This document shows, one piece after another, positions 2,919 to 57,356 of a stretch of DNA of 64,000 nucleotides. Position numbers and translations under genes: made by a program. The notes beneath the pieces were generated by a model. That model saw nothing but the letters and a program-made list of their open reading frames with translations, had not been told where the DNA came from and ran no database searches. The DNA lies in the NCBI GenBank assembly GCA_951406725.2, contig OX597833.1, positions 70,122,001 to 70,186,000 on the forward strand. Direction: 5' to 3'. Each line of letters opens with the position of its first letter. The first letter of the stretch is position 1. The DNA comes from Octopus vulgaris. Taxonomy: Eukaryota.

Positions 2919-5900
2919 GTTTAACTCGTTTACTGATGCAAATGGTTGTCCTTGCCCTACATAGAAACATATCTGTGTCGCATCCAGTCTACAAGATTTT
3001 GGCACCTCACACACTTTTCCTTTTGGCCATCAACGAGTGAGTTCTGTTTTTGTATTTGATTTTTGTCTTTTTTTTTCTTTTGTCTTTCTGGGATTTTTTC
3101 CTCTTGTAATAGCAAGAGAGAACCTCTAATTTCCAGTCGCATTCTTCACAATTTGCCAACAATAAAAATTAAGGAAACAAATTTTTAAGTAGTAATATAA
3201 ATGTTTGGTAGGATCAGTTGCTATAAGGAGTAATGAAATATTTTTCAGATTGCCAAAAGTGCTAAAATGCATAGCCAAATCTTGCTCAGATTATATCTTA
3301 CGTGTCTTAAATATATGAAAGACATACTAGATGAAGTTATCCTTGAGGTACTTTCTCTCTGTATGCTATACCTAGAGACAATGGTGGTCATAGAACGCCA
3401 TGTCAAAATCTGAGAGTTCAAACTTGGCCTTGGAGAAACAGAAAAGTGATTACACGTAGAGACTCCTGTCCGAATTTTTCCCTCAAACACACGGCCGAAT
3501 AAATTTTAATAGAAGGAAACTCGTTCATGTGACATCAAGGCATGACCACTCTATAGCGAGTTTCTGTGAAATATTTAGCATACATCATATATATACATAT
3601 ATATATATATATATATATATATATATATATATAACGGGAAGGTTTACAAAAATAAACAAAAGACGAAGGCAGGTGGAGTACAAACAAACAATTGTATTAG
3701 TATGGCGCTCAGGAACAGAAATAAAACAAGTCTTTTACGTTTCGAGCCTACGCTCTTCAACAGAAAGATACACAGAAAAGAAACAAGGAGAGAAAAAAAA
3801 TGCGTGTAGGAGCTAACGATCCAACATGGCGTTCTGATTTCAGGCAGAAGTCAGATATCAGAGGTCAGACGTTAGACGCTAGAGGGATAGTAGGGGATAT
3901 ATATATATATATATATATATATATATATATATATACACCGCTTTGAATTTTGGCGCTCGCTGTTCAACGGATATTTTTCCCTCAAGAACCAGTGGGAAGC
4001 AAGCTAACTCTTTAACCCGGATTAATTTGTGAATTCCCCTGAAGAGGAACGAAACCTTATTGGTTAAATTTCGGAATCATATGACAGGATCGAGTTACTT
4101 AATTCATCGAGTTTTATCTCGCTGGAGAAAGATGTTGTTGCTTGCTGCTCGTAGTCCCTTTGGAAATTTCATGAGGTTGGCGATTTTGTGTGAGTACTGG
4201 AGTTATATTTTTAGCTCTTATTTCTAGCAATTGTAGATGCTGTTTTGCACCCTTATTCACGTATTCTACCTTTTTTGTCTTTATTTGCTTTAGCCACCTA
4301 TTTTTTTATTCCTTTTTTTAAATTTTTTTTTATTCCTTTGATTTTATTTTTCCAGTTTTGCATTTGAAAAACTAGTATCGACTGAAGGTTTGGTCGATAA
4401 AGTAATGGCGATTGGACGAGATGGAATGTACGAACTTATCCATAACAGGTATGTTATAAACGCAAATTATCCTGTGTCACCTGTGTCGTTGATGAGGTTC
4501 AACAGATAGGTGTGAACATAGGTGTATTCAATAAGCAATAGGAAGCGCCCAGTCGCATGCTCTTACGTGAGATTTGAGTCCAGTTTGTCTAAGCTTGGAC
4601 TGTCATGTAATCACTCCGTGGCTGTTTCTTTCTTTTCTGGTAATCTATGTATAGGTCTGTGTGTGTGGTGGGGTGGGGTCTCTCTCTGAATATATGCATG
4701 TTTTTTCTGTGTGCGTATATATCTACTATCTACTATTATATCTAATTCACTTTTGGATATACACGTTTTATATGCATCCGCACTGACTTTCTCATTTGTA
4801 ATGCTTTTATTATACATATATATATATGTATATATATATATATATATATATATATATATATATATATATATATATATTTATATATAGAGTGCATTATTAT
4901 ACATACATGCCACACGCTAAGAGGGACAATTAGTCATTTCTACCAAAAATTTTACTAATCCCACCGAATGCAATCTTTCAAATTGCTATATATATACATA
5001 TATATATATATACATATATATACATATATATATATATACATATACGTATACATATATATATATATATATATATATATATATATATATATATATATATATA
5101 TATATATACATACATGCATACATATATATAAAAGGAAGTATGTATTCTTATATGTAATAAACTATTATATTTATGTATTACTATAAATGATATTCAAATA
5201 GTATGTATATGTGTGTGTGTGTGTATGTATGTATGTATGTATATGAATATATATATTAGGTTGGTGCATAATTATTGCGGCTTTTTTCAATAAATTTTAT
5301 TCAACAAAAACAATAACAACATTTAACAAAAACATATTTAAATGATTATTCCGGACCATATTCACCATCTACTTCAATTTCTGCTTGGCGTTTTGTGTAA
5401 TATTTTTTGGTGAATAGAATTTATTGAAAAAAAAAAGCCGCAGTAATTATACACCTGTCTAATATATATATATATATATATATATATATATATATATATA
5501 TATATATATATATATATATATATATATATATATATATATACCGGAGTAAACACATAAATGTGAAACAAGGTGGAAAAAGAGTACTCAAATACCAGTGGTA
5601 GAGTAATATGCTTTATTTAAAGCACCAGAAAATTCCATAAAACCTGTTACTCTAAGTTTCGCAAAAACTGTCCGACGAACGGCAACGCGAAACTCAGAGT
5701 AACAGGTTTTGTGGAATTTTCTGCTGCTTTAAATGAAGTATATATATATATATATATATATATATATATATAATAATAATAATAATAATAATAATAATAA
5801 TAATAAAAATTATAATAATAATAATATATGTATATACATATATATATATATGATATATCCTTATAGTTCACACGAATGGAACTTTTCAAGTGACGGACAT

Positions 5901-8900
5901 CCAGCTACTGATTTTGAAAACCGAAAAGTAAGCCTTTCTCTTTTTCTTGATTTCTCAGAGTTCTAATTTCAAATCCTGCGGTTCCAACTATAAATTTATG
6001 TTCACAGTTTCGATGTTAGTAAAGAATTGCTAGTTTAGATTAGATAAATGGAATTACTAGAACCAGAGCGAAGTGGCTTTCAGTATTTCTTCTGAGTCTT
6101 TGTATCCGGACAACAACACCTGAAACGGCTGTCATTCCAACATCTCTCGGCCTTGTCTTGCCTTTTGGACGGCATCGGTGGCGGGAGATGAGAGACTTGC
6201 ATACGTGAATATCTGTGTAGTCTTGCATTAAAATAAAAATATTTGCCCAAGTCTGTGACAGAAGACTTCCAGTTTCGGGAACATAATATCACATGACATT
6301 GGGTGGCCACCGTTACAATATATATTTTAAATGAACCGGAGATTACTGGAAAGAAATATATTTCTCATCGCGCATTTTCTGATTGCTTCGTTTCTTTTAA
6401 GAAATTTTTTTTTTTTTTTTTTTGTAGGTAATAGATTTTATCCATTAAATGTATTTTTCTTGGAATTTTCTTGAAAACCCCTCACCTGGTAACTTTTTTC
6501 TTTTGGAGAAAGCGTTTCATTTTCAGACGAATATTTCTATGGCTTTTTTCTATGATTGAAAATCTCATCTGATGTATCCGAGTTTCCAATAGAAGGTTCA
6601 TACTCATAGTTATCTCCTGAGCTCGACATCTGGCGTAATTTGTAAAAGAAAGAAAAAAAACAGAAAATAAAAACGAGAAATACCGAGAATTGATGTATAA
6701 CGATATCTGTGACAGGTTTTGAAATTATATGCTTTGGGCGAGTTCTCTTGTTACACTCTGAAAAAGACAAATAAGTGAAGACAATTCGTCTTTGCCGGAT
6801 AAGGGGTTAAACAATTCATCAACAATGGTAATATAGTCAACACGTAAGGCGGCGAACAGGCAGAATCGTTAGCACGCCGGGCGAAAGGCGTAGCCGTATT
6901 TCGTCTGCCGTTACGTTCAGAGTTCAAATTCCGCCAAGGTCGACTTTGCCCTTCATCCCTTCGGGCTCGATAAATTAAGTACCAGTTACGAACTGGGGTC
7001 GATTTAAGTCGACTTAGTCCGTGTATCTGTCCTTGCTTGTCCTCTCTGTGTTTAGCCCCTTGTGGGTAGTAAAGAAATAGAAATAGGTATTTCGTCTGCC
7101 GTTATGTTCTGAGTTCAAATTCCGCCGAGGTCGACTTTGCCTTTCATCCTTTCGGAGTCGATAAATTAAATACCAGTTACGCACTGGGATCGATATAATC
7201 GACTTAATCCGTTTGTCTGTCCTTCTTTGTCCCCTCTATGTTTAGCCCCTTGTGGGCAATAAAGAAATAAGAATCGATAGCCCACCGGGCGAAATGCTTA
7301 GTGGTATTTCGTCTGTCTTTGCGTTCTGTGTTTAAATTCCGCCGAGGTCGACTTTGCCTTTCATCCTTTCGGAGTCGATAAATAAAGTACTAGTTGCGTA
7401 CTGGGGTTAATCCAATCGACTGCCCCACCCACCCAACAAAATTTTGAGCTTTATGCCTGGAGTAGAAAAGAATATAAGCAACACGTTTCTCTGGCGCAAC
7501 TCAGTTTCGTTGAGAACATATTCCTCTGCTTTCTAATTTCAGGTTGACGACCCGAAAGTTTTACCCAAATACTATTTCAGAGATGATTCGCTTGTATTGT
7601 ACAACGCAATACATAAGTATGTCTCAAGCTACATAGATATCTACTATGGTAATTATATCGGTTTGGTTTATTTCTTTTATGTTATATTTGTTACTAGCAG
7701 AGTTACCCAGCGTTGCCCGAGTTACATACAATTGAAGAATTAGACTTTTCTGTTATATTTTCTGTAATGAACTGGAATACCTATGTTTCGAATTTCATCA
7801 AAATTGCAGATGAGGGTTATTTCCCTCTTTATACACCCTGAAAAAAATTGTAATCGTGCCACATGTATCCCATACTAATGATTGTTATGCGCATATTCCA
7901 AAATTCCAGTCTCATAGAACCTGTTGAAAGGATTTTGCTCCTGAAAAATGGAGGTGATGGAGCTCTAAAATGTGAGATTTAAGGCCCCTGTTGGGGGTGG
8001 GCATCTTAATGTCAACCAGAGAAGTTGAATTGTTGAGAATCTTTTTAACTTGGGTCTTATATCTTTGAGAAAACTTGTAAAGAAGACGTGCCACACGGAA
8101 TAAAGACCAGAAGTCAGTACACAATCGCAGCATACATAGCGTCCTGTTGATAAGGCGGCGAGCTGGCAGAAACGTTAGCACGCCTGGCGGTATTTCGTCA
8201 GTCTTTACGTTGTGAGTTCAAATTCCGCGGATGTCAACTTTTCCTTTCATCCTTTCGGGATCAATTAAATAAGTACCAGTTACGCACTGGGATCGATATA
8301 ATCGACTTAATCCGTCTGTCTGTCCTTGTTTGTCCCCTCTGTGTTTAGCCCCTTGTGGGTAGTAAAGAAATAAGTATTTCATCTGTCTTTACGTTCTGAG
8401 TTCAAATTCCGCCGAGGTCAACTTTGCCTTTCACTCTTTCGGGATCGATTAAATAAGTAAAAGCTACGCACTGGGGTCGATATAATCGACCTAATCCGTT
8501 TGTCTGTCCTTGTTTGTCCCTTCTGTGTTTAGCCCCTTGTGGGTAGTAAAGAAATAGAAATAGATATATAGGGAGCGGCAGAAAGCAACTTACTGCCACG
8601 TTGGGGACAGAACACGTGACGCAAGAGCAGCAGATGAATCCATTTCTTTTCTTTTTATCGATTTAGAAATTGAAAACGTATTGAAGGAACGAGAAACTGT
8701 TACAGATGACCGCTTTTTTACTTTTAATTTGTTTTTGTTTTTTTGGGGGTTTTTTTGTCAAAACTGAAACCATACTATATTTGTACAGGACTTTTTCTAA
8801 TTATATTTCTGTTTTAATTTCAAATTCAGCTGATGAAAACGATGTAAATAATGACTGGGAGATACAAAACTGGATCGAAAGTTTAGCCGTAGGACACGAG

Positions 8901-57140: not shown

Positions 57141-57356
57141 AGTTAAAGTTAATCCAAACAAGAAAGCACAAAAAAAAACACAACAACGCGAGGACGTGGA
57201 ACAAATATAGTATTATTGGACGCTCAGGAAAGAAGGAAAGAAGGAGGGTTCAACGTTTCGAGCGGAGCTCTTCGTCGGAAACATAGGAGAAGGAAAGATC
57301 CAGAGAAGGGAAGACAGAGGAAAAAAAATCGCCAACGGTACACACGAGGTCACATT
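57141..57356 (-). mobile_element. Copy of the 12844 hammerhead-bearing element, immediately 3' of the gene C stop
   Basis: Homologous to 12844-13050; hammerhead at 57248-57282 on the same strand as gene C. Confidence 0.72.

Follow-up and report, generated by a model that had tools for sequence, protein, structure and literature searches.

The window, i.e. the whole stretch of 64,000 nt of Octopus vulgaris DNA that we analysed, is an Octopus lipoxygenase cluster, in which hammerhead-bearing repeats lie together with remnants of PLEs. An earlier note on this sequence had named 13 hammerhead-like sites, describing them as a swarm of short microsatellite-embedded elements, each built around a minimal hammerhead. 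The features to which we refer below are the following:

3634 to 3833, minus strand: family A element, minimal type I hammerhead with C3 at 3763, core substitution A6U and an extra A
4030 to 4095, plus strand: doubtful single motif, CUGAAGA at 4039, loosest descriptor only and poor register
5541 to 5738, plus strand: fold-back PLE end (direct and inverted truncated copy), Hydra-type hammerhead with C3 at 5672 and U4C
12845 to 13050, minus strand: family B element with (TA)n at either end, C3 at 12968, U4C in the core, GUUU/AAAC as stem I
15758 to 16013, minus strand: family B2 element, 71% identical to B, C3 at 15894, canonical core, C.A mismatch at 2.1-1.1
18851 to 22529, plus strand: remnant of a 5'-truncated PLE, Hydra-clade by its motifs, accompanied by a truncated copy in inverted orientation, no RT
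20047 to 20883, plus strand: open frame with an Asn-rich linker and a GIY-YIG-type endonuclease, motifs CxCX5C and CxxC..E..N..CxH
25033 to 25293, minus strand: family B2 element, 98% identical to the 15758 copy with different flanks, C3 at 25169
29854 to 29990, no strand assigned: related to the 5541 fold-back element, retaining of the hammerhead just the half with GAAA and stem III (29877, minus strand)
30405 to 30505, minus strand: Hydra-type hammerhead missed by the earlier note, canonical core at 30497, long stem II
30695 to 51222, plus strand: host gene, PLAT and lipoxygenase, first exon 97% identical to an Octopus sinensis protein
36795 to 36986, plus strand: decayed family A relative, C3 at 36879, U6, GAAA and stem III damaged, (TA)n not adjoining
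38058 to 38214, plus strand: family C element following (TAA)n, with C3 at 38115, a core damaged by G5A and an intact stem I
40171 to 40318, plus strand: family C element following (TAA)n, with C3 at 40225, a canonical core and a stem I that has lost its 3' strand
47566 to 47751, plus strand: family A element in which the core has A6C, C3 at 47629, 82% identical to the copy at 3634
49778 to 50025, minus strand: fold-back PLE end, decayed Hydra-type hammerhead with C3 at ~49933, A6G and A14G
55182 to 55335, minus strand: single stub truncated at C3, palindromic 8-nt stem III, G17
55574 to 55750, plus strand: decayed end of an endonuclease, similar by eye to Hydra-1_Obim in the published alignment
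57146 to 57357, minus strand: family B element, 92% identical to the 12845 copy, C3 at 57278, U4C, predicted cut after 57252

The introns of the 30695 to 51222 gene hold five of the named sites (36879, 38111, 40221, 47625 and 49900). The family A copy at 47566 is inside an intron of lipoxygenase gene 2, and the family B copy at 57146 shares the strand of lipoxygenase gene 3 and lies ~63 nt past the stop codon of that gene.

We considered as a strict match any motif with at most one core mismatch, G10.1, a palindromic stem III and a stem I of at least 4 bp. This descriptor found 6 hammerheads in the window, at 3763 (minus), 12968 (minus), 47629 (plus) and 57278 (minus) and in the PLE copies at 18965 (minus) and 22413 (plus), against a mean of 0.017 (maximum 1) in 60 block-wise dinucleotide shuffles, so that the motif frequency does not equal that of shuffled controls; the reversed and complemented window sequence gave 0 strict matches. 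Requiring a perfect core without the stem I condition gave 6 matches versus 0.05 in shuffles, and the loosest descriptor gave 12 versus 0.88. A CUGAUGA at 62881 (minus) was rejected, since its stems do not fit.

Hammerhead-derived sequence is present at 12 of the 13 named sites, although the positions originally given were mostly a few to ~35 nt off C3. The strict descriptor matched 4 of the 13, and none of the 13 combines a canonical core with intact stems: the core is perfect with a broken stem I at 15894 (minus), 25169 (minus) and 40225 (plus), while decayed motifs were recognised by family or by eye at 5672 (plus; U4C, G10.1A), 36879 (plus), 38115 (plus; G5A), 49933 (minus; A6G, A14G) and 55335 (minus; C3 lost, G17). 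At 4034 (plus) a motif does exist, as had been described; its hammerhead identity is doubtful, with no consistent stems and no second copy found in the window. Self-BLAST of the window recovered several distinct families, and the density of about one site per 5 kb agrees with the first estimate. A (TA)6+ or (TAA)5+ tract lies within 150 nt of C3 at 11 of the 13 sites (36879 and 55335 being the others), versus a background of 26% (binomial p 1.6e-5, for sites picked with knowledge of the microsatellites), in keeping with the claimed association with (TA)n or (TAA)n.

Precisely, the swarm consists of two classes. Class 1 (families A, B, B2 and C) comprises discrete monomers of ~150-270 nt, mostly flanked by (TA)n and with a minimal ACGU stem III; class 2 comprises ends that are truncated or folded back and whose palindromic stem III is longer, like that of Hydra-clade PLEs. 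The description of every element as built around a minimal hammerhead was thus too broad, because about half belong to the Hydra type, whose stem III has 4 bp, and there are several dead stubs. In families A to C the core boxes CUGANGA, GAAA and UH occur in type I order, and all 7 descriptor matches of A, B, B2 and C have an extra nucleotide between 9 and 10.1, the pair G10.1-C11.1 and a palindromic 15.2-16.2. The core is canonical in B2 and C and has one substitution in A (A6U) and in most of B (U4C). Stem covariation had been named as a check: in an alignment of 11 sequences, which represent only 3-4 lineages, 4 of 4 stem I pairs change on both sides, with 90% of cells paired and 0 of 500 shuffles as high. 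Stem II, fixed by the search pattern in 4 outside loci, is invariant in the alignment and hence gives no covariation and is uninformative.

For families A and B we also analysed variants and depth in contigs assembled from public runs, whose RNA labels are guessed and of which two DNA runs are possibly the window's own source. Both families are very abundant there, in terms of contig depth and not of copy number. In family A, over 4 runs, N7 takes all four bases, and positions varying by at least 8% were 0 of 29 in core and stems versus 22 of 137 elsewhere (p 0.011). Its depth peaks 2- to 10-fold over the ribozyme; near 3831, the 5' end at which the three window copies all start, it drops 14- to 79-fold. 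The 3634 copy has a 4-bp stem II, an ACGU stem III, a predicted cut after 3736 and (TA)n adjoining its 3' end, and the 47566 copy has microsatellite on both sides. In family B about two thirds of the sequences have U4C, and variants were not depleted in the ribozyme (6 of 29 versus 27 of 147, p 0.72). The 5' part of the 15758 element is a decayed microsatellite common to both B2 copies; segmental duplication of these two copies was rejected because their flanks differ.

The 18851 element, cited earlier as an example of the PLE that would mobilise the swarm, has two arms (18851-20057 and 21322-22527) that are 99.4% identical, with perfect canonical hammerheads at 18965 (minus) and 22413 (plus); its left end adjoins (TA)30 and its right end is ~117 nt from (TA)n. 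Pfam did not recognise its endonuclease, and homologues scored only below the GIY-YIG cut-off. A word-index search of the endonuclease against longer proteins gave nothing, and an exhaustive search gave 3,367 relatives; among the long homologues checked, 11 of 11 have CxCX4-6C and the second motif (CxxC/CxH around E and N), and the longest (P0149 and P0154) also have the RWK and DKT motifs of an RT. The endonuclease did not align with that of L007 (E 0.21). Since no RT was matched in the window, the element is a remnant and cannot itself be the mobiliser; it is moreover, by its linker and endonuclease motifs, of the Hydra clade, with a hammerhead design unlike that of families A-C.

The class 2 sites (5668, 49900, 55297, 30497 and 18851) are likely ordinary Hydra-clade PLE ends, 5'-truncated and inverted. 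The 5541 element has stems I and III nearly equal to those printed for Hydra-2_Amil, the opposite arm of the 49778 element is a 5'-truncated copy, and the motif at 30405 has a 4-bp palindromic stem III and a 3-bp stem I. The stub at 55182 is predicted to be inactive.

For the A/B/B2 ribozyme, a link to PLE ORFs was found outside the window only. Of the 120 outside loci recovered by a search pattern that left positions 3-7 open, 71 have CYGANGA and 116 a non-G at 17. Among the 71 loci whose core is intact, from metagenomes and other animals, 9 have the A/B/B2 ribozyme 91-137 nt (~100 nt) behind the end of a Neptune-type PLE ORF, and Hydra-type proteins matched 0 of the 120 loci. Within the window, a search with 7 Neptune proteins gave no Neptune-type ORF or remnant.

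We therefore propose, with a probability of roughly 0.7, that class 1 is a set of non-autonomous units mobilised by PLEs at TA-rich microsatellites and that class 2 represents ordinary Hydra-clade PLE ends. The derivation of the copies from PLE hammerheads, already suggested in the earlier note, is supported. The class 1 unit is about as long as the non-coding terminal repeat of a PLE, and these units are likely gene-less PLE offshoots, overall a known pattern. We infer that a class 1 unit would be transcribed and that its uncut RNA would be bound in trans by a Neptune-type RT-endonuclease protein from another octopus locus; this protein would nick DNA at (TA)n and copy the unit into the nick by reverse transcription. 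Since stem III is a 2-bp ACGU in class 1, we predict that these ribozymes need either dimerisation or the help of protein to cut; single genomic copies would thus be nearly silent, and weak cores (A6U, U4C) could consequently spread.

A simpler account, in which all sites including A and B are 5'-truncated 3' ends of autonomous PLEs and no separate non-autonomous units exist, seems to us unlikely. It fits the class 2 sites, single motifs have been interpreted as truncated PLEs in the accessible text of Cervera 2014 (PMC4209133), and in A and B some 70-80 nt separate C3 from the 5' end, near the ~100-nt gap between ORF and ribozyme in Neptune loci. Against it stand the abrupt fall of family A depth at one point and the start shared by the copies of each family (3 of 3 for A, 2 of 2 for B); the 5' loose ends of B are, among the matches listed, (TA)n or heterogeneous (agreement 0.46-0.61) and not one upstream sequence, though a minor PLE continuation upstream could lie outside that listing. 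We give somewhat less weight still to a retrozyme-like cycle, in which (TA)n-separated copies would be cut by a dimeric ribozyme to a (UA)n-containing circle, whose reverse transcription, primed at a (TA)n target, would leave a sharp-ended copy with a central intact ribozyme. A central intact ribozyme with microsatellite at both ends is what class 1 has, circular retrozyme RNAs exist in molluscs according to the accessible part of PMC7229834, and among the matches listed, of 10,000-25,000 contigs, each of the two families had a single head-to-tail contig (B, 57352 to 57172; A, 3798 to 3654). Neither came from the runs guessed to be RNA, in which no end-to-start joint was found among the matches listed (1,283 and 300 contigs for B, 1,330 for A). 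Retrozymes have canonical, efficient ribozymes whereas class 1 has minimal ones with weak cores, and both flanks are explained by nothing more than insertion into (TA)n. Of the 13 sites 0 are in a tandem array, which speaks against a tandem-retrozyme reading of the swarm, although contigs would miss arrays whose units are separated by long (TA)n.

Chance folds in AT-rich repeats, or tRNA-derived SINEs whose B box mimics the right half of the ribozyme, are a very improbable origin and largely refuted. Folding energies were no better than those of shuffles at 9 of 9 sites tested (z -1.3 to +0.1), MFE z-scores thus not being discriminating; Rfam gave no hammerhead family on two focused stretches and, in a whole-window scan, no hammerhead among the best 150 of 320 matches, mostly to microsatellite-miRNA entries. 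We also counted for the SINE reading that GCTCGAAAC is one mismatch away from a B-box pattern. Against this stand the descriptor enrichment over shuffles and the CYGANGA and non-G17 recovered by the open pattern; furthermore, ARAGORN found 0 tRNA genes in the window, A, B and B2 have no sense A box, and the B-box-like matches fall within the ribozyme or immediately after it.

Taken as a whole, this picture is an ordinary one for animals rich in PLEs. The function of PLE hammerheads is called unclear in the accessible text of Craig 2021 (PMC8557442), and cutting was found to be dispensable for insertion in vitro (Frangieh 2024). Hammerhead mutants still insert in vitro, and the ribozyme needs protein (PMC11167929). 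Family A, with its conserved fold and fixed A6U, and family B, with U4 and C4 side by side, are natural test pairs of whether cleavage or only the fold is selected. A bolder reading, which we hold as tentative and rather doubtful, is that the hammerhead of these mini-elements is under selection, its 'forbidden' core (A6U fixed, N7 free) included, because it serves either as a ribozyme that is slow and assisted by protein or as a fold that binds the PLE protein and does not cut, and that they may move via (UA)n-containing circles and make up a large part of the octopus 'unclassified SINEs'. The latter include 893 recently active families, in a paper whose main text has no ribozymes or hammerheads (PMC13282606), and our data suggest that part of this fraction may be PLE-dependent.

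As to known systems, solo minimal hammerheads of PLEs and (TA)n-targeting octopus Hydra elements are already published, in the accessible texts of Cervera and de la Pena 2014 (PMC4209133) and Craig 2021 (PMC8557442), respectively. Among the literature matches listed for hammerheads in octopus, Craig 2021 alone was relevant, and no description of the window families was found; 5 of 5 short window motifs are absent from the accessible part of its supplement, and a 2-bp ACGU stem III occurs in 0 of the 26 Hydra rows of its File S2. Like the Hydra-clade PLEs described there, including Hydra-1_Obim of Octopus bimaculoides, the 18851 element has the CxCX5C linker, CxxC/CxH around E and N, a 3' hammerhead with a 3-4-bp stem III, (TA)n targets and an inverted 5'-truncated copy at its 5' end. 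It differs in having no RT, an Asn-rich linker, a 1.65-kb 3' region and a hammerhead other than that of Hydra-1_Obim, and so represents another family, as far as that source describes them.

With Neptune-clade PLEs (Neptune1_Ap; relatives P0184 and P0194) the A/B/B2 families have in common the ribozyme CYGACGA-A-GAGC...GCUC-GAAACGU-H, found ~100 nt behind the ORF in the 9 outside loci, whereas the octopus families have other stem I pairs and flanks. The minimal hammerheads of metazoan PLE pseudo-LTRs resemble A-C, in the main text of PMC4209133, in the extra nucleotide after A9, G10.1-C11.1, a short helix I and a palindromic minimal helix III (15.2-16.2), and resemble the window in having many families per genome, mostly as single dispersed motifs. 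Family-wide A6U, majority U4C, sharply bounded units and microsatellite embedding set the window apart from that description. A literature search found no hammerhead A6U, only usage in twister numbering, and other notations or closed papers could hide A6U; family-wide A6U in A, with N7 free, U4C in about two thirds of B and the sharp 5' ends are, on the sequences at hand, additions to the published picture. Metazoan non-LTR retrozymes, in the accessible parts of PMC7229834 and Li 2026 (bioRxiv 10.64898/2026.07.22.740005), are like class 1 non-coding, 150-400 nt long, with a type I hammerhead, an origin from PLE terminal repeats and dispersed monomer copies. They are defined by tandem units and, in PMC7229834, by canonical ribozymes and circular RNA, whereas the window has monomers with minimal ribozymes in microsatellites.

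The earlier note had claimed a swarm of short elements, each built around a minimal hammerhead. The swarm is real and of a known kind, that is, hammerhead stubs of Penelope-like elements (PLEs) together with non-autonomous derivatives. With a descriptor for minimal type I hammerheads that required G10.1, a palindromic stem III and 4 bp or more in stem I and tolerated no more than one core mismatch, the window gave 6 matches; 60 dinucleotide shuffles averaged 0.017, and reversed or complemented window DNA gave none. These were four of the 13 named sites and the two ends of the 18851 element, a Hydra-clade PLE remnant. 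A hammerhead at the heart of each element holds only in part. Among the other named sites, three keep a perfect core although stem I is broken, five have decayed, and the one at 4034 is doubtful; a canonical core with intact stems was found in 0 of the 13. The only canonical closed hammerheads in the window are 18965/22413, at the ends of the 18851 element, and 30497, absent from that list. Microsatellites are plentiful in the window, 13% of which is masked as short-period repeats. As to the proposed abutment on (TA)n or (TAA)n, 11 of 13 sites, picked with the microsatellites known, have (TA)6+ or (TAA)5+ no more than 150 nt away, against 26% of background positions. Folding energy gave no support for hammerhead sites in the window, nor did Rfam among the window matches listed and in two focused stretches. 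The other features considered were the following.

30405-30505 (-), hammerhead outside the named sites: canonical core, long stem II, ACAUAUGU stem III
1-11638 (+), lipoxygenase gene 1, ending at 11638
30695-51222 (+), lipoxygenase gene 2 (middle)
57420-62259 (-), lipoxygenase gene 3, with its end near 57420
55574-55750 (+), decayed Hydra-type endonuclease fragment, by eye resembling Hydra-1_Obim
63459-63692 (-) and 59437-59517 (-), decayed Hydra-type endonuclease fragments, weak matches
21 regions (e.g. 8118-8570, 27643-28250, 52713-53145), commonest interspersed repeat, in part arranged as 184-bp tandem units, which may resemble an octopus tRNA-derived SINE
5263-5455, 33250-33337, 34361-34492, 2527-2600 and 24421-24821, short palindromic or inverted-repeat elements, MITE-like, without hammerhead

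Self-BLAST resolved the discrete units into families A (three window copies, 73-82%), B (two, 92%), B2 (two, 98%; 71% to B) and C (two, 90%). In every family A9 is followed by an additional A, stem II measures 4-5 bp and stem III is an ACGU palindrome, features listed for the PLE minimal hammerheads of Cervera and de la Pena 2014 (PMC4209133), which are described there as thousands per genome and mostly single motifs. We aligned 7 window copies with 4 hand-picked loci of the at least 120 found outside; few lineages are represented. Of the covariation that the earlier note had tied to stems I and II, the stem I part was found: each of the four pairs has substitutions in both strands, and pairing holds in 90% of cells, a level matched by 0 of 500 shuffles. 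Stem II is invariant in these 11 sequences and thus proves nothing in this respect. Both B2 copies carry the same decayed microsatellite at the 5' end (15958-16013, 25233-25293), so it seems that microsatellite of the source locus was copied together with the element. The stretch GCTCGAAAC of the A, B and B2 ribozyme is one mismatch from a Pol III B-box pattern, and family C has GTTCGAAAT upstream of the core; both are probably coincidence.

The outside loci were collected from metagenomes by a pattern for the A/B/B2 ribozyme's right half, positions 3-7 being unspecified. Among the 120 loci listed, 71 have CYGANGA in that region (among them 32 CCGACGA and 30 CTGACGA) and 116 a non-G at position 17. 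Full-length RT + GIY-YIG proteins with DKG, YIDD and CX2-5CxxC motifs, whose named relatives are from corals, are matched by 12 of the 120, and Hydra-type proteins by none. At 9 of these loci (two look like one sequence) the ribozyme follows the ORF on the same strand, with 91-137 nt from the ORF end to C3. The ORF of one locus, L007, by eye matches Neptune1_Ap as aligned by Craig (PMC8557442). In these other animals the A/B/B2 ribozyme is therefore a Neptune-type terminal-repeat motif. No Neptune ORF was found in the window, so a Neptune-type partner in octopus is putative. At many outside loci (e.g. L001, L013, L027) the ribozyme region is present twice in inverted orientation around the core, which is also how the fold-backs at window positions 5541 and 49778 are laid out.

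To gauge abundance, contigs of coded public sequencing runs were placed on the elements at 80% likeness; the resulting numbers are not copy counts, and the RNA labels of the runs are guesses. B is present in runs of four coded organisms, with 24,845 of 40.6 million contigs in X8, 14,817 of 36.2 million in X6, 1,283 in X11 and 300 in X18; A has 16,350 (X8), 10,637 (X3), 6,556 (X7) and 1,330 (X11). Runs X8 and X6 may derive from the very source of the window. By extrapolation, two copies per 64 kb would mean tens of thousands per genome. Contig depth on A falls 24-, 79-, 23- and 14-fold in four runs between bins 3796-3804 and 3832-3840, the place where all three window copies start, and the best-supported loose ends listed for B at its 5' side consist of (TA)n or of AT-rich sequence of mixed kinds. 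Head-to-tail contigs among those listed were one for B (X8) and one for A (X3), with none in presumed RNA runs (labels guessed); the retrozyme-like origin that had been offered as an option was not supported. The picture for A and B is thus one of bounded monomers, and not of tandem arrays or of truncations in graded series.

Each of the four bases occurs at position 7 of family A (in X8, C 28%, A 19%, G 6%, the rest U), as expected for a free N7, while no alternative at position 6 reaches 8% in any of 4 runs, so that U6 is the state of the family. Within 3660-3825 (rows past 3825 were excluded as outside the family), variation was seen at 0 of the 29 positions in core and stems and at 22 of the 137 others (p 0.011). 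This conservation suggests that source copies of A may still need the fold, for slow dimeric cleavage or for binding. Over the ribozyme of A, depth rises to a 2- to 10-fold peak flanked on either side by hundreds of loose ends, which indicates sister families with the same A6U ribozyme and other flanks. Family B has U4 at 30-34%, above the 4-10% at three nearby CpG sites, and C4 for the remainder; at N17 only C and A are among its listed variants, and its ribozyme showed no depletion of variation (6/29 vs 27/147, p 0.72).

The earlier note had cast a PLE like that at 18851 as mobiliser. In 18851-22529, 1.2-kb inverted arms (99.4%) flank an endonuclease frame with CxCX5C and CxxC..E..N..CxH, hallmarks of the Hydra clade. 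Its longest homologues have an upstream RT with RWK/RWR and DKT; in the window, 11 such proteins matched endonuclease stretches only and never RT. The element is a recent insertion that is 5'-truncated and paired with an inverted copy, as described by Craig 2021 (PMC8557442), and it cannot mobilise anything itself. Its part 20058-22529 has an Asn-rich linker found also in the homologue P0007 (75% identity in the endonuclease).

We propose instead that transcription of the discrete units would start at a promoter in their own terminal repeat or come from read-through, and that their RNA would be copied uncut into (TA)n by PLE protein acting in trans. Weak cores would be tolerated, as stem III has only 2 bp and a copy on its own should hardly cut. 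For Poseidon in vitro, PMC11167929 describes a PLE protein that nicks AT-rich DNA and begins reverse transcription inside the RNA, and a ribozyme that is protein-dependent and, when dead, still permits insertion.

Three lipoxygenase genes are clustered in the window. The first exon of the middle one has 97% identity to an Octopus sinensis protein; five of its six protein matches are named Octopus and the sixth Argonauta. The hammerhead at 30405-30505 lies about 200 nt upstream of this gene's first coding exon, antisense. About 63 nt separate the stop codon of lipoxygenase gene 3 from the start of the B copy at 57146-57357 (-), which is on the same strand and precedes the gene's first downstream AATAAA (57096), hence its predicted location in the 3' UTR.

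Compared with known systems, the 3' region of the 18851 remnant (1.65 kb) is long for the Hydra clade, described as generally <3 kb. File S2 of Craig 2021 (PMC8557442) gives a 3-4-bp stem III in 26 of 26 Hydra rows, and this design recurs in the fold-backs 5541/49778, stub 55182 and motif 30497; stems I and III of 5672 are a near copy of those printed there for Hydra-2_Amil, and (TA)n is the target listed for Hydra-1_Obim. Of the core changes, U4C is known from nature and lowers activity, and cleavage by A6C is slow (PMC3088659). We found no natural A6U hammerhead in print, other notations and the 2014 supplementary alignments being outside this scope, and the main text of a 2026 O. vulgaris repeat annotation (PMC13282606) has no mention of ribozyme or hammerhead. 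PLE hammerhead stubs and non-autonomous derivatives have also been argued for vertebrates (bioRxiv 10.64898/2026.07.22.740005), and what is modestly new here lies in octopus units that are bounded and very abundant, and in an A6U core shared throughout a family.
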